Shown piece after piece: positions 1,057 to 64,000 of a DNA stretch of 64,000 bases. Source of the DNA: Octopus vulgaris. Taxonomy: Eukaryota. Each line of letters starts with the position of its first letter. Within the stretch, counting starts at the first letter, position 1. The notes beneath the pieces were generated by a model. That model was given only the letters and a program-made list of their open reading frames with translations. It ran no database searches and had not been told where the DNA came from. Location: assembly GCA_951406725.2 (NCBI GenBank), contig OX597832.1:16368001-16432000 (forward strand). The letters are read 5' to 3'. The position numbers were made by a program, and so were the translations under genes.

Positions 1057-1061
<5 letters not shown>

Positions 1062-1143
1062 TTTATTTAAAGCAGCAGAAAATTCAACAAAACCTTTTAC
1101 CGTTGCCGTTCATCGGACAGTTTTTGCTAGCAATGAACGGCAA
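1057..1143 (-). mobile_element. Deleted copy of the hammerhead-bearing Penelope-like terminus (same family as 32337-32566)
   Basis: TTTATTTAAAGCAGCAGAAAATTCAACAAAA is identical to the 32338 copy. The core reads CCGATGA on the minus strand and the GAAA/stem III segment is deleted. A short inverted copy (TTGCCGTTCAT/ATGAACGGCAA) follows the same TTTTTGCTAG turning point. Abuts (TA)n. Confidence 0.7.
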
Positions 1144-4578: not shown

Positions 4579-5949
4579 ATACATAGATATGTATACGATA
4601 TTTGCTTCATTTGTTCCTTAAGAAACAAGTCAGATCACTGAACCTTTTTCTGTTCTTCTAGTTTCAACCAAAAAAACAAACATTATTATCGAGATATATA
4701 TTGTGATTAATAGTATTGCATATTGCATTTTGCATTTATTTTCTTTACCAAGCCTGATCTTAACGTTTAAGATTAACTAGGCTATTTTTTGGTGAAATCA
4801 ATAAAATCCACAACTACGAAAGATCAGGTTTCTTGCAATTCAAACCTACAATTCTACGTGAGGTTCACTCACCAAAAATATATGCAACTTTTTGCTGTTT
4901 TCACCAGTGTTTCCTCTAACGCATTTTCTTCAACGCTTATTTGATTCAATAGGATTCGAATTTTATTCGCGCCACATTAGGCAGATTTTATTTGCACTTA
5001 GAGTGTATACCACAAAAAGTTTGCTATACATCAAATTATTTGCGAGCATGTGATAATTCATGTGCATCCAGTTATCTACTTTACCTTATTTCTACTTACT
5101 CAGTATTGTCTGGATGCTCAAGACGTTGCTTCCATTTTAAAATTTATAGAGTACGATGACACATTGACATTCAGAAAACGATTTAATATATTACATATAT
5201 TACAGACGAATTTTTCTCAAACCTCTTTATGTACAGGTTATATCGCCTCTGAGTAAAATCACGTAGCGTATGCGAAGGAACCAAACAGCGTAATTTGTTG
5301 AGATGTCATTGCATCTTGTGACTGGACAGGACTCTCTACAACCATTGACGAATTAATTGCCCTCTGTAGCCTAACATATATGTTACAAACTTATGATCAA
5401 AGAGAGATATACGTGATGCCTGTGTAGTATAATGTGCCAACGATGTTCCATTGTTTCCGGAATTAAATTCAACGAATATCGTCACATTTACTTTTACTAA
5501 GACACACTTGCAACGTTCTTGGTCCTGATATCATTACTGGATACTAGAGTAGGCTGAAACGTGGATAGGTAGACTATGAAAGTCAGATGCTAGAGCTCTG
5601 AAATGTTCCATGCGTTAATTTCAACTCGTCTTACAAAAGTTTGCAAAATGAAAATATTGGAAGTTGTTTTGATATTTGTATGTTACTATATATATTTTTG
5701 CGGCGCTACTTCGAAATACCAGAACAGGTATTTCCCATTACCTACGGTTTTCTCAGAAGTTAATGATAAAATATACTCTCATTTGTATGTAAATCCACAT
5801 GTGACACTTCAGAATGAAACTAATAAAATGAATTGGATACTATATTTAGCAACATAAGAGGGCATAAATAAAACTGAAATGCGAGAAAATAGAATTTCTA
5901 TAAGTCTGCCATTAATTAATTTTTCTTTCTGCTGTTCTTTTTTGATTCA

Positions 5950-6610
5950 GCACCTGAAAACCTTTATGTTTGTAATTTATTTATTTTATTGTTTTTGGAA
6001 ATTACGTCTGAACTCTTTTCCGTGAGAGCATTTGATTAAAATTTAGATGAAGCATCCAACATTAGTCGGCCATCACATTGATATTTCATCATTCCTATAG
6101 CTCACCATTTAATCTTCCTGAGATCTTTCCTCTTGCTCCTCTCCCACATCTTCCAGATTTTTCGGAATGTAATCGATATGGGCATGGAGGAAATGAACAG
6201 TAATGCTCATTTTAAATAGTAAACTCTCGGAAATTTCCAGTATTACATCCTCCTGAGTAGACAAGAATTTCTTCATCATATCTTTAAAACTAATAAATAA
6301 ATCTTTATCCAAATACCTAGGAGGGTTTTCTAAATTGTTTTCCTTGTCGAGTTTTATTATATTTAGTCCTACAAATATACACTCTTCAGTCTTCACATCT
6401 GATAGATCAGTAATCTTGCTACGCATATACATGAATCCCTATCCATCCTGTGGCAAAGATTTTACAAATTGCTTCATGAAGCCAAGTTTTATATGTAGAG
6501 GGGGCAAAAGAATTTTGTTCGGTTACACGAATCTTTCTCGAAGAATATAGTCCCGGTATAAGGTTATACGTAATTGGCCCAAACTTTTTAGACCAATGGA
6601 GTTGGTGTCC
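5950..6610 (-). pseudogene. Decayed Chapaev3-like (CMC superfamily) DNA transposase
   Basis: Minus-strand translation across frameshifts gives KILLPPLHIKLGFMKQFVKSL, MSITVHFLHAHIDYIPKNLEDVGEEQEERSQED and NVMAD*CWML. These match the PLHIKLGLMK / HFLHSHLD..PENLG.VSDEQGERFHQD / MMADYCW motifs I associate with Chapaev3 transposases. Confidence 0.8.
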
Positions 6611-6929
6611 ACATTTTTAAAGCCTGCTTAAGAGTGAATGAGGTCACATCAGGGGAAAATCCGCCATCATTTGAGGTAGATCCAGATGGTTTGCTTCAAC
6701 ATTTTCAAGGCAGAGTGTGTGTTGTGCTCATAATTTTGAGCCGCTTACAAAGAGACAAAACATGCAGTAGAAGCATACTTTATCATTTAATCCAAAGTAA
6801 ATCAAGGCCAGTCGGGAAGGTGAAAATAAACATAATTTCCTCTCATTCCACAAGGCTTGCATTGATCAGCCTATGAACATTCCTGCCGGCTCGCGTGTGT
6901 TTATAAAAGGTAGTTAGCTTGAACACACG

Positions 6930-7120
6930 TTCTCACGCCGGGCATGATGCTTAGCGACTTTTCGACAGTCATTATTTTCTGAGTTCCAATGGGGGTGAGG
7001 TTGACATTACCTTTCCTGCTTCCAGGTCGATAAAATATATATATCATTTGAGCAATGGGGTGGATGTAATCCATTTACGCACCACCCGATATTGTTGGGT
7101 TTATATTGAAATTTCAAATC
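6930..7120 (+). mobile_element. Degenerate SINE family B
   Basis: CACGCCGGGC...TGCTTAGCG...TTCTGAGTTCCAAT...GAGGTTGAC...GGTCGATAAAAT. Confidence 0.65.
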
Positions 7121-7149
7121 ATTAATAAATATATTTAAGGATATATTTA

Positions 7150-7205
<56 letters not shown>

Positions 7206-7208
<3 letters not shown>

Positions 7209-7321
7209 AGTATTGTTTTATAGTTGAATATTATGACGCGAAATTATCTCCCTTTGCTTTGCCTTCCCCTCTCTCTTTCTGTCTCTCCCTCTTCCTCACC
7301 CTTCTCTCAACCGCGTGTCTT

Positions 7322-7357
<36 letters not shown>

Positions 7358-7890
7358 ACTCCTCCTTACTTTCGTCACTGCTAATCCTTTCGTACGTTGC
7401 TTTCAGGCCCTTAGGTCATGTTTCCCAGCACTCGCCAGTTACCTCTTCCGTCCCTGCCAGAACAAAGGCCTTTCGTTGGTTTTTTTCGTTTGTTCTCTTG
7501 TTTATTTTGATTTCTCGTATTGTAATTTATTTCTCGTTTTGTATTTTCTTGTACATGTATTTTTAATTTTGTATTTTTTCTTGTATTTTATTGTGCAGTT
7601 CTTTGTTACTTCCCTTTTTGTGTTTTTTCTTGCTTGTTTTACCCCTCTGCGAGGTTATTTTAATTTAATTCTCTCGTAGGAAGGCCTACATGGACAGACG
7701 TGTCCTGTCTTGCCTTCGAAACACGCTATGTCTGCTAGTGACAGCTGATGAAGGGGATTTTTCCTTGTGTAGCATGTCATGTACCTCTTTTTTCTGTTGT
7801 ACATATTGTTTTTCCCGTTTTCGTTCTCGTGTCCTTCTCTGGTAACAAAATGGCTTTTCCGTTTTCGTTTCTGTTACGTTTTACGTCTTT
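7206..7890 (+). mobile_element. Probable Penelope-like 3' terminal/UTR fragment between (TA)n tracts
   Basis: Pyrimidine-rich tract with hammerhead-like pieces: GAAGGC...GCCTTC-GAAACACG and CAGCTGATGAAGGGG. Lies between (TA)n tracts. Confidence 0.4.
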
Positions 7891-7993
7891 TTGTGGTGTC
7901 CTGTACATTTATATTTATATATGCATGTATATATACATGTAGATGTCGGTACGTACATATATGTTTGTTTGTATGCATATATTTTATTTATTA

Positions 7994-8041
<48 letters not shown>

Positions 8042-8069
8042 AGATAGATAGATAGATAGATAGATAGGC

Positions 8070-8180
8070 ATCGCTTAATAGTAAGAAGCTTGCCTTCCAA
8101 CCATATGTTTTTGGGTTCGTTTCTAAACGTGGCAATTTGGTAAAGTGCATTGTACTATGGTGTCGGGTCTACAAAAGCTA
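8070..8180 (+). mobile_element. Partial degenerate SINE family A head
   Basis: GTAAGAAGCTTGCCTTCCAACCATATG...GGGTTCG...CGTGGCAATTTGGTAAAGTG. Confidence 0.65.
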
Positions 8181-8703
8181 CACTTGAGCACATTCTGGGG
8201 TTATTAAAATTCGTTTTGTGTAAAATGCTTACTTATAGATGAGTAACCCATTTAAACTAAACTCTGCAAATGGAGATACCTACACATCTTGCTTATGTAA
8301 ATAGTCAAAGTACGTAAACATATAAACTCAACCGATGCCCGTAAACAATGTACATATATTAACTCAACATAATTAGTAGCAGAACATATCTCAATATAAA
8401 ACGAAATTTAGCACCACGAAGAACGGAAAGAGGAATTCAGAAACACAATAATAAATTATACAAAGAAAAGTAAACAGCTTGCAACGGTTGAATTCATTGA
8501 TTTACCATCATTCTTTTGCGTTGTAGATGAGTTTCTTCCTAAATGATATGAAATACACTACATATCAAAATCAAGAATACTAAAGCTATGAACGACAATG
8601 TTGGCTGAAGATGCTACACTAGATGTCCAAACGTGGACAGAGAGCAACGGCCTGTTTAAAATATATTCCAATACTACTGTAGACATATATGCATGAGTAC
8701 TGA

Positions 8704-8749
<46 letters not shown>

Positions 8750-8891
8750 ATATATAATATATGATATAATATATATATATATATATATTATATTATATTC
8801 TATATATACACTTATATATATAATATATAATATATATATATACATATATACATTTATATTTATACATATAATTTATGTGTATATATAAACT

Positions 8892-8952
<61 letters not shown>

Positions 8953-9699
8953 CATACTTTACACACATGCGCAATCACATAAATGTGTATATGTCTATAG
9001 AAAATTTTGTGTGAGTGAAAGTACTTACACAAGTTTGAGGCAAGACAGTCAAAAGTGATAGGAAGAATAGTACCATACTAAGATAGAGTTTTGTGAAATA
9101 GAAAAGAAAACAAATGAATGGTGATAGAGACAGAAATATTGAAATTGAAAGACGTCGTTAAAATCACGAGTAATATATTATAAGATTTAATACAATGAAA
9201 AGGGGCAGATACAGTGAAGGGGAAACTAAAGGCGACACAGAAGTAATTGTATGGTAGGACGTTAGGAAAAACGAGAAAAAATGATATATTTTTCTAAAAA
9301 TATAAATACATAGAATATATAACGAAACAAAGAACTAAAGGACACAAAAGACGAATGAAAAAAAAAAACAAATGGAGAACTACTTGTGTAAGAAGTATAG
9401 CAGTAATTTAACAAAAGAAATAGATATTTTTCTTTTCCACAACTAATGTATATTGTATGTTAATAGATGTCTGCTAAAACTCCATTATTTAGAAAATGAC
9501 GAGCAAAGGACAGCTGCAGCTGTTGAAAATGTAATGTAATGTTAACATTTTTCGTTCAGATTTCGCATTTTATTCGAGAACACATAATATAATATTCCGA
9601 GTGATACTAGTGTTAAAACTACAGCTACTTCACATACGAGCGTTTTGTTCGTGCAATTCATCCCTTTATTTTTCCTACTTATTCCGATTATAAAATCCT

Positions 9700-9800
9700 T
9701 TCTACTATAGGCACAAAGCCTCATTTTATTTTTGTCTGGGGACGGGACTGATCGATTATATTGACCCATGAGTTCAACTTCTAATTATTTTATCGTTCGT
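9700..9800 (-). mobile_element. 3' fragment of SINE family B
   Basis: TTTCTACTATAGGCACAAAGCC...GATCGATTATATTGACCC, as in the 22735 copy. Confidence 0.6.
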
Positions 9801-10303
9801 GATCTACCACTCAGGAGTATCGTTTCATGACTAAGCAGCAGATGAGGTCTTGCATACTCAAATATGTGCTTCAGGTGCGAACATCATAAGCAAGTACCAC
9901 ATTGCTCAACTCGATGCTAGATTATAAGCTCTAGACTTGCTTTCTAACATCTCTTTTCTAACATCGTCTTTCTGACTAGTTTCTTTTCCTAGACAGCTAC
10001 CAACAATGATTGTTCCCATCACTACTTCGTTATTTTCCCCCTGTAATAGCTGGTTAAATATCGTTCAAGCGATAATGAGCGTTATTCTTTCAAGTCCCTG
10101 CTTCTGTCTCTGGTTAATTCTGATTCTAGAAATTCTGAAGCCGTAAACTGCAGAACCACTACATCTAAAATGTAAGTAAATAACACTGTCCTAAAAAAGA
10201 AATTAAGTATATCTGAACAAAAACGTTAGCGAATTCGAAAATGCTACTTGATATCAACCACATGCTTGGAAGGATTTTGACCAGATATATTTGTGTCTGG
10301 ATC

Positions 10304-10417
10304 TCATCCTACAGGCGGCGGAGAAGCAGCTAGAGAGTTTGACGGAGACGGTGACGTTGAAAGAAATTGTGTTACGAGTGTGGGTGAATTTGTGCCACAG
10401 ACAGTGAAATTTGTGGC
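10304..10417 (-). CDS. Probable terminal coding exon of an unidentified minus-strand gene (phase 0: ATNFTVCGTNSPTLVTQFLSTSPSPSNSLAASPPPVG*)
   Basis: Strong acceptor on the minus strand (TTTTTCTTTTTCTTTTTGGTTTCAG|GCC), locally GC-richer unique sequence, and an open Ser/Pro/Thr-rich frame ending in TGA at 10304-10306. The reading frame is not certain. Confidence 0.55.
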   Translation of the reverse strand, partial: ATNFTVCGTNSPTLVTQFLSTSPSPSNSLAASPPPVG

Positions 10418-10483
10418 CTGAAACCAAAAAGAAAAAGAAAAATATGAATTATTCTATGTTACTTCGTCGAGTTGAAAGAGTGT

Positions 10484-10574
<91 letters not shown>

Positions 10575-11373
10575 TTAATTAACACTGCAAGTGTAGATGT
10601 TCGTCCTAAATCGAGTGCATATTGGTAAGTTTATATTTCGAAGAAATTCAAGGGTTCTTGCTCTCTGAACTGTATTATATCTCTGAACTGTGTTATGACC
10701 TTGTGCTAAATGCATTTGCACGCTTTAGAAAACCAAGATATTACTTGCAATCTGTCGGGTAGACATTGCGGTTGGTATGAACATCCTATTATTAAAATGA
10801 CACGCGATATTCAGTTGCACATACATACACATATCTATCTATCTAAAGCATTAGCGAAAAGTATAAACTTGACTGTTATATATAGACATATGGGAAAAAA
10901 CAAAACACACGCACACACTGATGCATAACGTGTTGTCTGTGTGTGTGTGTGTGTGTGTGTGTAGGTTTGTTTGTGTGCGTGTGTCTATATATATGTATAT
11001 AAATATACAGACTTGTATGCACGCGCACACACAGGCTCAGACACAGGCACAGTCGCACACACAAACATATATAGTTTGTATTTATGCATAAAAAAGAAAC
11101 AAACATTCAGAGACTGATGTAGATAAAATAAACAAGTTGTGTTGGTATCACGCCCAGCGAAAATAGAAGCTGTCTTTGAAAACCTCCAGCCTACTCCCTT
11201 CTACCAACAGAAAAGCACGAGGAGAGGAAATATGAAAGGAGAAAAAAATAAACGTTGACAAAAGAGACGTGTCTACATTAACAGTTGCATATACATGCAC
11301 CTATATATCTTTATCTCTATATAGATATACATATTTATACACACACATACATAAATATATATATATATATATA

Positions 11374-11413
<40 letters not shown>

Positions 11414-11429
11414 GCAAAAATTTGAATTC

Positions 11430-12090
11430 AAATGAATATGGTACTTAAGTTGAGGAACCAGAATTTAGTATGATGTTACCATACAATTTCAAAGCAAGGT
11501 GATTGAAGTCAAAATAAGCAACAAGAATATCCAGAGTTAATGCAGTACGATCGTTTCATGCAACTCTATTTACTTGAAGAATGCAATCATTACGTCACTT
11601 TACAATGCAGTGTAATCTTCAGCTGCACAAAGACATAGAATTTGATTAAATTAGAAAAGCTGGATACATTATTATAATTATACAAAAATTCTCCAAGAAC
11701 TTAAGGAGATGAAGAAAGAACATGCTGCGTTAACTCCATCATAGAAGCTACAAAGGTATCAAGAAGTTATACATTGTTACAGACTCTGCGTGTCACTGAT
11801 TTGTATTTATGGGTTTAGTTTTAATTTATAGACAAGTTTATCAAATCCTTGTTTTGAGAGAACAAAGGAGCAGTATCTGTTGGAGGTAGGGATGAGGGAG
11901 CCGACAGAAATTATAGTTGGTATAATCATAAAAATCAAGATTCATAAGAAGCGATATCATGAGGTTTGGTAAAGGAAACCTTAAAACAAGTGTTAGCTTA
12001 CAGCTAAATGAATGAATATTAGGTCTCAAGAATTAAAATTCCTGTCCTTGATTCGTTTGGCTCTAATTTTTGAAAACATTACACCAGCTC
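11430..12090 (-). mobile_element. Penelope-like retroelement 3' remnant (decayed end of ORF plus UTR with hammerhead)
   Basis: Minus strand gives RIKD...LRPNIH, similar to the C-terminal 'R.IKE..I..LRPNIN' of PLE GIY-YIG domains. It is followed in the same orientation by a hammerhead motif and is bounded by microsatellites. Confidence 0.55.
11541..11627 (-). ncRNA. Type I hammerhead ribozyme motif
   Basis: TGCAG-CTGAAGA-[stem II insert]-GAAA-CGATCG-TA-CTGCA. 5-bp stem I, palindromic stem III (ACGATCGT), GUA cleavage triplet, imperfect stem II. Confidence 0.75.
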
Positions 12091-12121
12091 AGCTATTGAG
12101 TGAATACGAAAAGAGACAATA

Positions 12122-12197
<76 letters not shown>

Positions 12198-13093
12198 TAT
12201 ATACATATGCCTGTTTGTATGTATGTGTATCTGTGGCAGTTAGTGTGTAAACTCTGTGCACGTTTACGTACTTTGATATGAGTTTTCGAAATGTATAAGC
12301 AAGTTTCTTTATACATGTTTACAGCCGGAAGAATACTTTACAATGATTCATACACAATACTATAAAATGTTTTGCAGCATTGTGTGAAAATGTAATTATT
12401 TATCTGGACAACAGATATTTCACTATGTCTTTTGTTATCCAATTTCCTACTCGGCTGTCAATTGATATTTAATAACCGCCTACCGTTGACTATTTTTGCT
12501 TGGAGATCTTGAGTAAATATTCGTACTGTATAATGTGAAATTCACATTGATGCGATCTCGGTCGGTTTCACTAATCGTAAGTATTACTTAATATTGTTTC
12601 AAAAGTACATCCGTAGGCATGAAACTATAGAATGAGTAAGCTCATTGAATGTAAATCCATATGTCCGGGTGTAAGAAGCTAAACGTGCTAAAATGACTTC
12701 GGATATACTTTCCTTTTCTTTCCGTCATTTTCTTCCGGACGCCAACGATGCTTGGGTATTAACTAGGCGCATTTTTCGTAATAAATAGCACCGAGACTGC
12801 CCTTTTTGTATTTCTCTCCTCTTGACATACGGTGGAAGGTACATCACATATTCAGAGATGCGGAGGCACTCGCACACATTTACATAGAAGTATACATACA
12901 TATGTACATACACATTTATATACATATATAAATATATATATAAAATATTAGATAAACACCTTTTATCAATTCAAAATGAATAATTAGATTACACCATCTA
13001 GAAAATTACATATAATTGAAAAGTTAAAATAAGAATTAAAAAGTAAAGATTAAGTAAATTACAAAAATGATATAATGTATATAATAGGTAGAA

Positions 13094-13180
13094 AACGACA
13101 CGTGTTTCGCTGCTATAGTTAAGAAATAATTATAGTAGTAGAAAAATCACTTGCATATAAATATAGTCGCTCATCAGGTT
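13094..13180 (-). ncRNA. Type I hammerhead ribozyme motif
   Basis: AAC-CTGATGA-GCGACTATA...TATAGCAGC-GAAA-CACGTG-TC-GTT. Intact core, palindromic stem III (ACACGTGT), GUC cleavage triplet. Confidence 0.8.
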
Positions 13181-13230
13181 AAAAATATAACAGAACAGTA
13201 AAATAATTAATTAATATATATATACTTTAA

Positions 13231-13315
<85 letters not shown>

Positions 13316-13387
13316 TTGTGCGTGCGTGTGTGTATGAAAATTTTAAATATGCTTAATTGAAAAATAAAATAATACTTCAATAAGGTG

Positions 13388-13426
<39 letters not shown>

Positions 13427-14249
13427 ACATTGTGTATATTTGATTTAGCATTTCTAAATTGAATTCTTTTCCCCTGTAAGTCTGGATTTTATTCCCTCAA
13501 ATAACAATTATAGAAATATATATATAAGCAGACATGTAAACATACTTACATGCATAAATACATACACACATATATACATACATACATACATACATACATA
13601 GACAGAAACAGAAAAGCACAAGCGACGTGAACCCCCAAAAAATCACTTTACCATACAATATTGATATTTGTAACTTTTCGTAAGTAAGTGTGATAAATGT
13701 TAAACATTGGTGGTTATATAAAAGCCGTGACAGACAGGTTGTCAATAAATGAACATAACGAAATTTCACTTTGTCTGTTGGAGGACTAAACGATCAGTTG
13801 CAATGAAATTTAATAGACTACAACCCGCATTTGGGGGTTGTTAAAAAATTTTAAACATAAAATATGTACATGAACGAGACCTTAGTAGTAGACCGAGAAG
13901 ACCAACAGTCGAATTAATCGCAACGTCTGCACCTACTAATATTAAATGGATACAAATAATATGAACCTAATTTATCAAGTGTCAAGTGGTCTGGTTTAAA
14001 TATAAAGAAGTTGTTTCTCTTGAAATGCAAACACAGTAAAAATCTCGTTCATCCTGGAATTTAATTTATTCTTCCAGTATTCTCAAGTCTCTTTTAAGAG
14101 ATGCGGTGTCTTGAACAGAACAGGCCGGACATTTTTGACCCGCTAATAAAGGTTTTGGTTTTAGATAGGATATTCCATTTCATGTCGAAAGCAGTTATTC
14201 GTTGTAAATTTCCAGATTAAACCCGAATGTGTGTGTGTGTGTGTGCGTC

Positions 14250-14452
14250 TGTGTGTTTGTGTATTTGCGTTTGCCGCCCATCACTTGACAACGGATGTTC
14301 GTGTGTTTACGTCTCTGTAAACTAGCGGTTCGGCAGAAGAAATCTATAGAATAAGTACGAAGCTTACAAAGAAAAATTCCTAGAGTCGATTTGTTCGACT
14401 AAAGATTGTGCTCCAACAGGTTCACTGTTAAATGACTGAAGCAAATACAAGA
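14250..14452 (+). mobile_element. 3' half of SINE family A
   Basis: CTTGACAACGGATG...GCGGTTCGGCA...GTCGATTTGTTCGACTAA...AATGACTGAAGCAA. Confidence 0.8.
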
Positions 14453-14460
14453 ATATATAC

Positions 14461-14506
<46 letters not shown>

Positions 14507-22129: not shown

Positions 22130-22362
22130 AAATTCTTTACTACACACAAGGGCTAAGCACAGAGAGTACAAACAAGAACAGACAAATGGATTAAGTCGAT
22201 TACATCGACCCCAGTTCGTAACTGGTACTTAATTTATCGACCCCGAAAGGATTAAAGGTAAAGTCGACCTCGGCGGAATTTGAACTCAGAACGTAACGGC
22301 AGACGAAATAGGGCTACACATTTCACCCGGCGTGCTAACGTTTCTGCCAGCTCACCGCCCTT
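22130..22362 (-). mobile_element. tRNA-derived SINE, family B (central domain resembling the Meta-SINE domain)
   Basis: Head GGCGGTGAGCTGGCAGAAACGTTAGCACGCCGGG, B-box GAGTTCAAATTCC, core GTCGACTTT.CCTTT.ATCCTTTCGGGGTCGATAAATTAAGTACCAG. Confidence 0.9.
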
Positions 22363-30130: not shown

Positions 30131-32251
30131 CTAATATACACAGTAATACGAACCACAATAAAATATAACTATATGATGGTAGTGATGGTGCTCGATCTTC
30201 TAGTCAAAGCAAAGAAACTTTGCCTCGGTCTTTCGTGTTTTTTGTGTAGGCTGGTGATATCAGTGACACATAATTCCTAAGGAATATCTCACGAACTCGT
30301 ATTCTGCATATTTTATTATCCCTGCAATGATGAACGTATAGCATTTAAATAACATTAGCATTTGAACTGAAATTTGAAATAGTTGTAACTATCACTGGTA
30401 TGATTCTGCGAATCGTTTATGATGAAGACTTCCCATCCATTAAATTATACTATATTTAGGGATTTCATTAAATTTAATATGAAGTTATTCACTTAACCAA
30501 ATATTCCAGACGCTTCTTCGCGCGTTTACACGACATATTGTTATTGTGCTCGCCACTTGTAATAAACAAAATATTAGATAGTGCCCCTAGAGTTTACAGG
30601 TAGTGTACTGCATGCCCAGTCTAAGCCTCACACATAACTCTCCAAAAGAGTAATTAAACTGCTGCTTAAATAAAACTGAAGTTACACATTCTCAAATTGC
30701 TTTTCAATTAAATCGGAAATATGTCATTCAAGTAACATTCAACGGCAATAGACTGAAAAGTATAATAGGAAATAAGTCAATGCAGGCAAGGAACTTCGTA
30801 TGTCTTTTTTAGCTGTCTTTCATCGCCACAATCCTCAATTTGTTATCACGAATCGACATTTACATAATTTTCAATCGAAGACCATTTTATGCTTTTGGCA
30901 CATTAATTGAGCTTGTAATATTTGACAAATATTAAAATCACTAAAATCATACACATGAATATTAATATGTAGGCATTTTTATTTTACCGAAAGGAAGGAG
31001 ATTAGAAAGCGTTTGTTTTCTTTCTTTTTCACTATGGATGGGACTAATGGTAACAGTACATAGCAAGAGTAGATTCACTAAATATAATTTTTTTTTTTTA
31101 TTAATTTCTATAACATTTTGTAGTATTTGAATTTGCACCACAAAACAATGTGCTCCAAGCAGTGGAATACTAAATTAAACAAGTTGTGCTATTTATTATG
31201 TAATTAATGTGTAAATACGGAAACCTTAAGAATGAATTAATATTGAGCAATTAAAGCATACATATCAATATGTTACTCTCTAGCCTGTATTTGATGGTTG
31301 ACATTGACGAGTGAATGAGCTGTTGCCATGGACAATGGTATTCCTCTGCGTCTGGGGCAAGTATGCATTGGCTAAAACTGGACAACGGAAAGGAAATTTC
31401 GGACGACTGTACTCCACTAATCTTGCATGATTAAGATGTGGTAGTCATCAACTTATGATTCATTAGTGTAACTGACAAGTGTAATATACAAGTGTAATTG
31501 CTAAAATGAAACAATGCAAAACAAGTTCGCCATATTAGCATTGTCGTTGTGAACCAATTTTAACAGAAGCCACAAGCATATAATTTAGTGTTGTAATGGA
31601 CCAGGCTAATTTTACTATACAGTAATACACCAATCATCTTAGTGTGCAATAGTGAGCAAATAACGACTAAATTACTCTCTTGTTAAATGCAAGGAAACGT
31701 ATTGTATTAGGAGACCCCTTTAAAATTAGAAGATGATACTGTCTTAAGTGTTACTGGGAATATATTTTGATCTATCAGTACTGACAACGTGTAAAAAGTC
31801 CTTGCATGACTTTCGAAATGCAACACATCATTTTACACAGGAAACCACAGTAATACATCCGTATAAAAGCTGATACTAATTAGCAGAAAACTCAATAGGT
31901 TTCGAGTCATCATATTCAAAACTTAACAAATTGGTACGTCTATATTTTGTATGCCTATCTGTATGTATGTATATACATGTATACGTTCTTATGCACAAGT
32001 AATTATGGGGTACTTTAAAGCTGTAAGTGAATTTACCGTGTTATAGACTGTTAAACGCAAAATGAATTCACATGAAATTTCTCATCTCAAGTGACTATCA
32101 CCTACTTGATGAATAGTATCCTCTACTGGATAAATTTTAACCAATGTAGTAAAATATTCTCTGATTTGAGAATTCGTTACAACACTTGAATTTGGTTTCC
32201 GTTATATCATGCATCACGTGTGCCAAATCTATTCTGACACAGCCTCGAGGA

Positions 32252-32315
<64 letters not shown>

Positions 32316-32369
32316 ATATATATATATATATATATTCTTTATTTAAAGCAGCAGAAAATTCAACAAAAT

Positions 32370-32407
32370 CTGTTACTCTGAGTTTCTCGTTGCCATTCAT
32401 CAGACAG
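32370..32407 (-). ncRNA. Minimal type I hammerhead ribozyme (antisense twin)
   Basis: CTGT-CTGATGA-ATGGCAACGA-GAAA-CTCAGAG-TA-ACAG. Confidence 0.8.
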
Positions 32408-32423
32408 TTTTTGCTAGAAAAAA

Positions 32424-32461
32424 CTGTCTGATGAACGGCAACGAGAAACTCAGAGTAACAG
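32424..32461 (+). ncRNA. Minimal type I hammerhead ribozyme
   Basis: CTGT-CTGATGA-A-CG-GCAA-CG-A-GAAA-CTC-A-GAG-TA-ACAG. Stem I CTGT/ACAG, GNRA-capped mini stem II, near-palindromic stem III, predicted cleavage after GUA (32457). Confidence 0.85.
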
Positions 32462-32563
32462 ATTTTGTTGAATTTTCTGCTGCTTTAAATAAAGCATATT
32501 ACTCTACCACTGGTATTTGAGTACTCTTTTTTCCACCTTGTTTCACATTTATGTGTTTACTCC

Positions 32564-32665
<102 letters not shown>

Positions 32666-41416: not shown

Positions 41417-41935
41417 AGTATACGCCAAAATTAGTCCCCCAAATTTATGTGTCCAAAATGTGTCTATTAGCTATTTAATTATGATTGCTAGATATCGTTG
41501 ATTATTCGACGTGTCGAATTTTATTCGAGATTGCTGGCAGAAGCCAGGGATTCCAGACTTTTTCAGCAATTCGTTTTCCCTGATGAGGCGACCTTCCTAT
41601 CTTCCGGTCACATCAACTGTCATAAGTGCTTCTATCAATTAGAAGATGACGCTGAAGTTGTTTTGGAAATGTACGATAAATCACCTTCTTTTGTCATTTG
41701 GGCGGTGATATCATCTTCAGGAATTTGTGCATTCTATGTTCAACGAGAGGCGATGAATGGTGATCGTTATCTGCCGTTGTGTGAAAACATCATCCGGTCG
41801 TATTTTCGATACCGTAATTCCAAAATTTCCGTGCAAGATGGATCACCTCCTAATTATGGCAATTTTCTTTCCTTTTCATAATATTTCACGTACTTTTCTG
41901 TCAAAAGCTCAAGTTGGGGCACTAATTTTGTGTGT
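41417..41935 (+). pseudogene. Internally deleted Tc1/mariner-superfamily (DD41D/rosa-like) transposon
   Basis: ORF 41498-41881: RRVEF...FPDEATF..SGHIN...SPSFVIWAVIS...MNGDRY...QDGSPPNY (first two catalytic D). TIR-like pair CAAAATTAGTCCCCCAA / TTGGGGCACTAATTTTG. Confidence 0.8.
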
Positions 41936-42400: not shown

Positions 42401-42783
42401 AGAAATACCAATTGGCGAGCTGGCAGAAACGTTAGCACGCCGGGTGAAATGCTTAGCGGTAATTCGTCTGCCGCTACGTTCTGAGTACCAGTTACGCACT
42501 GGGTTCGAGCTAATCGACTTTATCCGTTTGTCTGTCCATGTTTGTCTTCTCTGTGTTTAGCCCCTTGTAGGTAGTAAACAAATAGGTATTTCGTCTGCCG
42601 CTACGTTCTGAGTTCAAATTCCGCCGAGGTCGACTTCGCCTTTCCTCCTTTCGGGGTCGAATAAATAAGTACCATTTGCGCACTGGGGTTGACGTGATCA
42701 ACTTAATCCATTCCTCTGTCCTTGTTTGTCCCCTCTATGTTTCATCCCTTGTGGGCAATAAAGAAATAAGAAATACCAATTGG
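42401..42783 (+). mobile_element. Dimeric SINE family B insertion with 15-bp target-site duplication
   Basis: One head and two body/tail units. AGAAATACCAATTGG at 42401-42415 and at 42769-42783. Confidence 0.9.
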
Positions 42784-48035: not shown

Positions 48036-48556
<521 letters not shown>

Positions 48557-49634: not shown

Positions 49635-50562
49635 GAATGGTACAACAATGCACTATAATACAAACAATGGACGATATACCTGTTGTAAGTTAGTCATCCA
49701 TACGCGGCGGTCAAGCTATTGATTAACTGCATAATAGCCTCCGACATCCAATGCTTCGGACTTACCGCAGGGTTAGACATACAACTAGTCCACTGCGGCC
49801 CCTCTCTGGGAGGGCAGCTCGCAAAGAAACGAACAAGGGACAACAATCAATGTACAATAACTAACTATTCCACCCGTAGCATAGATTTATGCCAACGGAT
49901 AAATTTTGCATATAGAATACAATGTAACAAATGCAACAAGTTCTATATGGGTAGCACAACAAGACCGTTACACGTCCGCACCATAGAACATCATAACGCG
50001 AGAGTATCCTCCTTCAGAAAACATCTAGACAGATGCCGGAACACCTACAAAACCATAACAGTCACAATTGAGGCCAATGCAAGAAATGTGGGTAATTTAA
50101 GAAATAAGGAAGTCGTACTAATACACAGACTAGGGCCCCAAATTAACAACATGCTAGAGGTTGGTAAGCATTATATTATTTAGCAACATCTGGATGCGTG
50201 TTGGTTCATTTTTGATAATATGCTCATCTGTAGTTTATAACAAAAAAAGAGAGAAAAAAAGGAGGTAAAAAGAGAATGCAGATATTATGCATAAATTAGT
50301 AGCAGCGCTACGGATGTACCAACACACACGAAATTGAATCATGGCCGACTCATGATGATTTCCGGAAGGAACTTCGTGAGACCACTGCTGAGACGCTTCC
50401 AAAGAAAAAAAGAAAAGCCGTTTGAAAAACGATTATAGCAGCGACTCCATCTAAGAATATCTCAAGAAAGAATTTTATTCCGAAATAAAAGATTATGGAT
50501 GACTAAATTATAACATTATATAGCACACATTCTTTGTATTATAGTGCATTGTTGTACCATTC
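49635..50562 (+). mobile_element. 5'-truncated Penelope-like retroelement with inverted terminal duplication
   Basis: Contains a GIY-YIG ORF and a decayed hammerhead at ~50384-50443. Inverted repeat 49635-49669 / 50528-50562. Confidence 0.85.
49719..50183 (+). pseudogene. Penelope GIY-YIG endonuclease domain fragment
   Basis: AYRIQCNKCNKFYMGSTTRPLHVRTIEHH...SSFRKHL...LRNKEVVLIHRLGPQIN, the PLE GIY-YIG signature with its zinc-binding C/H residues. Confidence 0.88.
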
Positions 50563-61624: not shown

Positions 61625-62074
61625 CATCATTCGTTGCATATTCGAATACGAACGTAGTTGTTGTTGCTGTTATATTTATTTTCGTGTGCACTCTCATCCG
61701 TAACTTTTATGAACATTTTAGTTAATGCCAATTAAATGTTAGTGTATTTGGAATGCAAATATGTCCAGATATCAAATTAGTTCATACTTTCTTTCTTTCT
61801 AAAAATAAGGAATCCAACAAAATGGCATATTCCCCTCTAAATTCAGAGTTGTTAGTTTAGCTAATCTAAATGCTTTCCGTAGATAAAATGAAAAGCACGT
61901 GATATATAAAGCCGGGATTGAAATTGGCTGACGTCGAAAGTAGATGAAAGCTCTGCTGACATACAAGAATATAAAAGAAATTATTCATTAACGCATAAAT
62001 GAGCAGGAAATATAGTACATAAATTGTATTTTCAATTAATGAAATAGATTTCATAATTAAATAGATTTTGCGAA

Positions 62075-62543
<469 letters not shown>

Positions 62544-62583
62544 TAAAAAAAAAACCTTAGGAAGGAGCAGCCAGGATCGAAGA

Positions 62584-62958: not shown

Positions 62959-63540
62959 TTTCTGTTATAGGCACTAGGCCTGAACTTTTGGGGGAAGGTG
63001 ACTAGTCGATTACCTGGACGCCAGAATTTCGCTGGCACCTTATTTATCGACCCTGAAAGAATAAAGGGCAAAGTCGACCACGGTAGAATTTGAACAAAGA
63101 ACGTAGCGACAGAAGATATACCTATTTCTTTACTACCCACAAGGGGCGAAACACAGAAAGGACAAACAAGGATAGACTAACGGATTAAGTTGATTGCATC
63201 GATCCAGTGCGTAACTGATACTTATTTAATCGACCCCGAAAGGATGAAAGACAAAGTCGACCTCGGCGTAATTTGAACTCAGAACGTAGCGGCAGCCGAA
63301 ATACTTTTTTTTTTTTAATACCCACAAGGGGTTAAATACAGAGGGGACAAAGAAGGAGAGACAGACGGATTAAGTCGATTATATCGACTCCAGTGCGTAA
63401 CTGGTACTTAATTAATCGACTCCGAAAGAATGAAAGGCAAAGTCGACCTCGAGGGAATTTGAACTCAGAACGTAACGGCAGACAAAATACGGCTACGCAT
63501 GTTGCCCGGCGTGCTAACGTTTCTGCCAGTTCACCGCCTT
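62959..63540 (-). mobile_element. Trimeric SINE family B (one head, three ~185-bp body units)
   Basis: ATCGAC(C/T)C.GAAAG.AT.AA.G.CAAAGTCGACC recurs at ~63046, ~63229 and ~63415. Single head at 63490-63540. Confidence 0.9.
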
Positions 63541-63569
63541 AAGTACAATGTTAATAATAAAATAAATAT

Positions 63570-63989
63570 ACTCTTTTACTCTTTTACTCTTTTACTTGTT
63601 TCAGTCATTTGACTGTGACCGTGCTGGAGCACCGCCTTTAGTCGAGCAAATCGACCCCGGGACTTATTCTTTGTAAGCCCAGTACGTATTATATCGGTCT
63701 CTTTTACCGAACCGCTAAGTGACGGGGATGTAAACACACCAGCATCGATTGTCAAGCAATGCTAGGAGGACAAACACAGACGCACAAACATATACACACA
63801 CATACATATATATATATACATATATACGACAGGCTTCTTTCAGTTTCTGTCTACCAAATCCACTCACAAGGCATTGGTCGGCCCGAGGCTATAGCAGAAT
63901 ACACTTGCCCAAGATGCCACGCAGTGGGACCGAACCCGGAACCATGTGGTTGGTTAGCAAGCTACTTACCACACAGCTACTCCTGCGCC
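63570..63989 (-). mobile_element. Full-length SINE family A
   Basis: Head GGCGCAGGAGTAGCTGTGTGGTAAG...GGTTCGGTCCC, CORE-like ATCTTGGGCAAGTG, (GTAAAAGA)n tail. Confidence 0.92.
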
Positions 63990-64000
63990 TATAGCCACTC

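Follow-up and report, generated by a model that had tools for sequence, protein, structure and literature searches.

A palindrome in a 64-kb stretch of Octopus vulgaris DNA (hereafter the window, meaning the whole of the stretch that was analysed) carries two hammerhead-like motifs head to head, one on each strand. The locus raises the question of whether this layout is a regulatory switch, in which an antisense arm holds a ribozyme in check, or the trace left by the arrival of a mobile element. The locus is real and is well explained by a known class: with a probability of roughly 0.85, it derives from one insertion of a Penelope-like retroelement that left two head-to-head, hammerhead-bearing ends of an abundant repeat between (TA)n runs. 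The predicted locking of the two motifs by this head-to-head layout is likely a by-product of that insertion and not a regulatory switch, and the locus is new only as an example of its family with a slightly unusual motif.

The palindrome and its hammerhead-like motifs

The initial annotation had described two 76-nt arms (32337–32412 and 32419–32494) as reverse complements with one mismatch. Arm comparison confirmed this description, placed the mismatch at 32395/32436 and revealed a slightly larger structure. The 6 nt between these arms consist of the self-complementary CTAG (32414–32417) and a mismatched pair (32413/32418), and the arms extend outward to 32332 and 32499 across one further mismatch (32336/32495). 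Together the halves, 84 bp each with three mismatched pairs between them, make up a palindrome that is centred on CTAG and has no spacer; its RNA has a predicted folding energy of −125.1 kcal/mol (z = −27; equally stable shuffles, 0 of 200). No other complex palindrome of such size was found within the 64-kb window, where the sole other match was a 22-nt microsatellite-like arm. Two features were absent from the initial annotation: a 66-nt extension (32500–32565) on the right arm only, and (TA)n runs flanking the unit on both sides. A target-site duplication was not readable at the locus, the flanks being microsatellite that would hide it; the window is AT-rich (29–41% GC) and microsatellite-dense throughout. 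The features of the locus, the parts of its plus-strand motif and a second copy of the same family in the window are as follows.

32253–32331 (start approximate), no strand: left (TA)n microsatellite, the likely insertion target, from the sequence
32332–32415, minus strand: inverted arm, a tail-less element end whose outer end corresponds to 32499, from arm comparison and from the 32499 end in other family copies
32370–32407, minus strand: left-arm hammerhead-like motif, core C3 at 32403, with a U-G wobble in stem II at the single arm mismatch
32413–32418, no strand: inversion junction, CTAG (32414–32417) within one mismatched pair, 11–14 nt upstream of the hammerhead core, from family cover across the junction in three DNA runs
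32416–32499, plus strand: forward arm, comprising the element end as far as the inner end point
32424–32461, plus strand: candidate type I hammerhead-like motif, from descriptor scan and folding
32424–32427 and 32458–32461, plus strand: stem I of the motif
32428–32434, plus strand: core of the motif, followed by an extra A at 32435
32436–32437 and 32442–32443, plus strand: 2-bp stem II, followed by an unpaired A at 32444
32445–32448, plus strand: GAAA
32448–32456, plus strand: palindromic stem III, with the predicted cut after 32457
32500–32565, plus strand: one-sided 66-nt tail common to the family, family depth continuing through it
32566–32660 (end approximate), no strand: right (TA)n/(TG)n microsatellite
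1057–1143, minus strand: decayed, tail-less family copy adjoining (TA)n, core position 4 being C and GAAA/stem III being lost to an 11-nt deletion

When both strands of the 64 kb were scanned with a descriptor for type I hammerheads with a palindromic stem III, only two matches emerged, one per arm, with core C3 at 32428 on the plus strand and at 32403 on the minus strand. Shuffled windows gave 0.23 loose matches per window, and 0 of 100 held a match combining a stem I of at least 4 bp with a palindrome of at least 6 nt. On both strands the core elements CUGANGA, GAAA and UH stand in the correct order. Stem I is open-ended, with 4 bp and 4 more beyond a bulge, and the extra base after core position 9 is present as the A at 32435. 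Stem III is a 9-nt palindrome suited to dimer pairing (duplex, −7.4 kcal/mol), which supports the initial assignment to the dimer type. When the isolated 52-nt motif was folded, stems I and II formed with a probability of about 0.57–0.6, apart from one stem I pair at 0.24, and stem III formed with a probability of about 0.01, as expected for a dimer-dependent type.

Stem II departs from the standard form, having only 2 bp, a first pair that is C-G and not G-C, and an unpaired A (32444) before GAAA, so that the G10.1-C11.1 pair closing a stem II of at least 3 bp is missing. The Rfam covariance models, which had been proposed as a check, gave no match in the window at the gathering score; at E values up to 10 they matched no hammerhead family, the matches being limited to generic models of microRNA-type hairpins and to others below threshold. 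The original description of a complete 38-nt minimal hammerhead thus holds for the span 32424–32461, the GCAA loop, the palindromic stem III and the GUA site ending at 32457, but the word complete was an overstatement, given the 2-bp stem II beginning with C-G, the unpaired A before GAAA and the absence of an Rfam hammerhead match. We class the motif, from its sequence, as a hammerhead-like variant and a predicted ribozyme. Minimal hammerheads of Penelope-like elements are described as having an extra base after position 9, a short stem I and a palindromic stem III; their monomers are reported to be inactive and their dimers only weakly active (PMC4209133). Hammerheads lying close together on opposite strands have also been noted in that study, and weak stems II are reported in other natural hammerheads (PMC3088659).

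An abundant repeat family with a recurrent inversion point

Contigs of four out of 24 listed sequencing runs aligned to 32400–32570 at 80% likeness. X1 (a possible source of the window), X2 and X8 (which bears another organism label) are DNA runs, and X13 is labelled as RNA. Matching contigs numbered 6,901 (X1), 3,635 (X2), 5,448 (X8) and 542 (X13). Summed contig depth was not taken as copy number; the thousands of distinct contigs point to a repeat with at least thousands of copies. Both the tail and the arm belong to the family, and their depths are comparable, at about 1.0 million for the tail versus 1.0–1.2 million for the arm in X2, and 1.8–2.1 versus 1.7–2.1 million in X8. Copies ending behind 32499 in loose (AT)n were found in 35, 14, 41 and 3 contigs of X1, X2, X8 and X13, respectively. 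The end points of the family are 32499 and approximately 32565, and the left arm of the palindrome stops exactly at the former.

Family cover also crosses the palindrome centre. The depth of bin 32406–32411 was 40%, 7%, 11% and 0.5% of that of bin 32412–32417 in X1, X2, X8 and X13, the drop in X2 and X8 being about 9–14-fold. The same inversion point recurs in the family, yet most of the X2 and X8 depth is not continued as a palindrome, a comparison in which hairpin centres may be under-counted because these are short-read contigs. Half of the joints listed (5 of 10) connect opposite strands, and in all five one arm reaches 32420–32425 and the other starts at 32484–32529, so that the arms are often unequal. 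Three joints that appear to skip from 32423 were discounted as support, since a forward-strand stretch of a related subfamily resembles 32404–32413 and renders them ambiguous. Among the contigs listed, none spans 32400–32570 or connects this segment to unique flanks; 5, 9 and 9 contigs from the DNA runs align at two positions within it. The palindrome junction, measured against its neighbouring bin, was 13–75 times rarer in the RNA-labelled run (0.5%) than in the DNA runs (7–40%), a figure that refers to one run and to contigs only. Hairpins may be copied poorly, and silence, decay or editing could each account for the difference as well.

The second family copy in the window was also first noticed in the initial annotation, as inverted near the same point. 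It proved to be real, with its centre at 1126–1131 in common with the main palindrome. Past this centre it holds only 12 nt (1132–1143), which agree letter for letter with the other arm once 11 nt are left out. These 12 nt are probably an inversion remnant; the less probable reading, which we regard as unlikely, is that they represent the natural 5′ end of the element, and it draws on their resemblance, with two indels, to an 8-nt loose end of the family upstream of 32414 that is present in 13, 13 and 3 contigs of X1, X8 and X13. The suggestion that the inversion point is reproducible is accordingly upheld by the second copy together with the family cover across the centre.

Sequence variation within the family touches the motif itself. 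Core position 4 (32429) is polymorphic, with C in 16–49% of family depth, and the base before GAAA (32444) may be A, G or T, with G in 16–37% and T in 5–21% of depth; a T at this place would add a third pair to stem II. Variants were listed at seven of 171 places, and the remaining core positions are without a listed variant; with so few variable places overall, this invariance is not a sign of selection. Both arms of the palindrome carry identical letters at three family-variable sites (32429, 32444 and 32462). A related subfamily, recognized by loose ends before 32484, was represented by 56–60 contigs per DNA run and 10 in the RNA-labelled run. Its sequence past the cut site would pair perfectly with 32419–32427 to give a stem I of 9 bp, which, judged from sequence, would favour a real hammerhead fold in this lineage.

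The window contains several further repeats. The stretch 49689–50390 (plus strand) holds a remnant of a different Penelope-like element with a GIY-YIG-type frame whose identity to two Octopus bimaculoides proteins is 68–70%; a reverse transcriptase match is also present in one of the two. The nearest named relatives of the gene remnant at 49689–50183 are likewise Octopus bimaculoides proteins, and an apparent decayed hammerhead with an altered core, judged by eye, follows the frame at about 50340–50385. The presence of this different remnant in the same window indicates that such elements have inserted in this genome. The database protein P0002 (958 residues), in which a Penelope-type reverse transcriptase end and endonuclease are joined to a C-terminal part (PF05672) that is long, charged and host-like, is probably a gene-model chimera and possibly a case of exonisation. 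A 129-residue open frame at 41492–41881 (plus strand) had no Pfam match at E 0.1, and we take it to resemble a fragment of a Tc1/mariner transposase. Dispersed repeats in both orientations, presumably SINE-like, lie at 1779–2022, 14227–14478, 22155–22310, 42586–42769, 48092–48556 and 63307–63990, and a 15-nt motif from their 3′ part has 12 matches versus 1.4 expected. Long trinucleotide arrays at 61866–62560 switch strand near 62388 and form a low-complexity inverted pair.

Origin of the palindrome and alternative explanations

Insertions of Penelope-like elements are described as combining a terminal-repeat hammerhead, an adjacent inverted and 5′-truncated copy, a tail restricted to one end and a preference for (TA)n (PMC8557442), and head-to-head inverted repeats with palindromes at the junction are reported to be common and have been interpreted as self-priming (PMC3846280). 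At the present locus all of these published insertion marks (inverted truncated partner, palindromic junction, one-sided tail and (TA)n target) lie within approximately 230 bp, and both family copies in the window adjoin (TA)n. The Penelope-like origin proposed at the outset is thus supported by the insertion architecture, the family end points and the joints. For an element from the anole it has been shown in vitro that both target strands are nicked and extended, that copying starts at two sites bracketing the tail, and that hammerhead cleavage is dispensable (PMC11167929).

Following these published systems, the element would have copied only its last 85–150 bases, and the mirror arm would have been built on landing. 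An endonuclease would nick AT-rich DNA and reverse transcription would start at either of two RNA sites, yielding one tailed and one tail-less arm; copying would then end close to the 5′ margin of the repeat, with the self-complementary CTAG as the joining point, a last step proposed here from the locus itself. The mirror arm could have arisen by twin priming, with both target strands each priming a copy, or by one copy folding back and priming its own mirror image. The former is rated at slightly better than even, because the end of each arm coincides with one or other of the family's two end points, and the latter at a little under even. Any read-through RNA is predicted to form one long duplex that would keep both motifs from folding and leave the locus catalytically silent. 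The family could not be linked to any reverse transcriptase or endonuclease gene in a search by way of a 45-residue frame, which begins at an ATG within the core, is interrupted by a stop at codon 30 and gave no credible relative. Neither the longer proteins nor the relative of the neighbouring Penelope-like element aligned with it, and its three matches among representative proteins, all to repeat proteins, were rejected as spurious.

The strongest competitor to a single insertion, itself improbable, is that the whole palindrome is a mobile non-autonomous unit, with both arms copied from a palindromic master: a self-propagating, non-coding unit that lives as a parasite on a Penelope-like retrotransposon and moves as a ready-made hairpin while its antisense arm keeps the hammerhead locked. 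The shared centre of the two family copies in the 64-kb window would fit such a unit, as would the depth that crosses the centre in all three DNA runs, and hairpin centres may be under-represented in short-read contigs. However, the tail depth in X2 and X8 is of the same order as the arm depth and not half of it, and cover falls about 9–14-fold across the centre in these runs. Moreover, joints with unequal arms exist in the family, and in the RNA-labelled run the junction drops further, to 0.5%. Were this explanation true, the motif would be one of the smallest natural hammerhead variants, and an octopus-type genome would gain many perfect double-stranded substrates for A-to-I editing.

Still less probable is a two-step history independent of retrotransposition, in which a single truncated copy came first and the mirror arm was added later by fold-back repair at CTAG. 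The short palindrome at the junction suits such a repair, and the identical letters of the arms at the three family-variable sites fit one template, but a one-template origin is equally expected from self-priming at insertion. The mirror arm, furthermore, ends without a tail at 32499, the end point of other copies, where repair would have no reason to stop.

The initial annotation had gone further and proposed a selected, self-inhibited ribozyme cassette switched on by A-to-I editing or dicing, which we consider very unlikely. Its premise stands as a prediction: whichever strand is transcribed, the antisense arm comes first in the RNA and would bury the ribozyme, the hammerhead helices in the full RNA being some 74 kcal/mol costlier than the hairpin by modelled folding. 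This predicted lock follows from the geometry of the inverted arms alone. Six of the 13 core bases are adenosines within the duplex, so editing would more likely destroy than release the ribozyme; on this sequence and the general properties of hammerheads, it would amount to damage to the catalytic core. The low probability of stem III in the isolated motif (only about 0.01) and the loss of the core in the decayed second copy, in which GAAA is gone, also argue against a functional cassette, and the layout is that of the published insertion pattern. The poor activity reported in PMC4209133 for minimal hammerheads of this kind, absent in monomers and weak in dimers, points the same way. Hyper-editing is very high in octopus and palindromic repeats are strong editing targets in the frog, according to PMC5625713, so that passive editing of such hairpins would, by analogy, be unsurprising. 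The A-to-G edits named as a check showed no excess in the RNA-labelled run at the two listed sites (15.5% and 49.6% versus 21–37% and 49–65% in the DNA runs), a weak test because contigs lose rare variants and pool all family copies. No RNA run was listed as carrying the left flank (31700–32240), a blank that bears on expression in neither direction. Of the idea that the palindrome yields a long double-stranded RNA that is a good ADAR or Dicer substrate, the predicted duplex remains, and the locus could serve editing or small-RNA enzymes only as a generic substrate, if at all; the notion of ribozymes controlled by editing gains nothing from it.

That the palindrome is a fold-back artefact of the library or of the assembly is equally improbable. 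Inverted structures beside microsatellites are difficult to assemble, and none of the contigs listed bridges the unique flanks, but the arms differ at three positions and the outer flanks are unlike. Two samples besides the possible source cover 32400–32411 (depth 3,326–6,286 in X2 and 5,798–13,872 in X8) and the contigs of the DNA runs that fit two places (5, 9 and 9) agree with a genuine palindrome, both being evidence at the level of the family and not of the locus.

Two other classes of element were rejected. A MITE or other DNA transposon with terminal inverted repeats is ruled out by the one-sided tail, the variable ends and the unequal arms, and a non-LTR retrozyme, defined by head-to-tail tandem units with a hammerhead in each (10.64898/2026.07.22.740005), by the presence of only an inverted pair at the locus. 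A 27-nt arm pattern had no match in metagenome and viral contigs. A gapped core-plus-tail pattern matched nine viral loci, none with the stems or with flank similarity, and a 22-nt core pattern matched three metagenome and two prokaryotic loci, all GC-rich with unrelated flanks; both sets were attributed to chance.

Relation to known systems

Published papers on octopus hammerhead ribozymes were found, none of them on this repeat family as judged by title or the start of the abstract, and Repbase or Dfam may already catalogue it. In Octopus vulgaris, 31 recently active Penelope-like families have been reported, and ends with hammerhead palindromes are not described in the portion of that report available to us (PMC13282606). 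With thousands of copies, two sharp ends and a favoured inversion point, the family is good material for the question of twin versus fold-back priming.

As a self-folding editing substrate that needs no partner, the palindrome resembles the palindromic Harbinger repeat of Xenopus tropicalis; the latter, as presented in PMC5625713, is a DNA-transposon family with a palindromic consensus, whereas most copies here appear not to be palindromic across the centre. The motif is closest to the metazoan Penelope-like minimal type I hammerheads, with which it shares the CUGANGA and GAAA core together with the extra base after position 9, the short stem I and the palindromic stem III; some examples listed in that set cut after A or begin stem II with A-U, and opposite-strand pairs are reported (PMC4209133). 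It differs from them in its C-G first pair of stem II, in the unpaired base before GAAA and in the C at core position 4 in 16–49% of family depth. Its stem II has 2 bp, compared with a smallest value of 3 bp among the 56 rows of the supplementary alignment as its text reads, and this variant would, if cutting occurs, lower the known size limit of Penelope-like hammerheads.

At the level of the insertion, the locus matches those of Penelope/Poseidon, Neptune and Nematis, as far as these are described in PMC3846280 and PMC8557442, in its hammerhead terminal repeat, head-to-head truncated partner, junction palindrome, tail at one end and (TA)n. Unlike them, it has no coding sequence between the arms, so that its clade is not assignable without a gene, and its 66-nt tail is longer than the 30–40 bp quoted for described Penelope-like elements in the literature available to us. 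Green anole Poseidon differs in sequence family and tail length; it shares with the octopus repeat two end points that define the tail and an AT-rich target (PMC11167929, in the part available to us).
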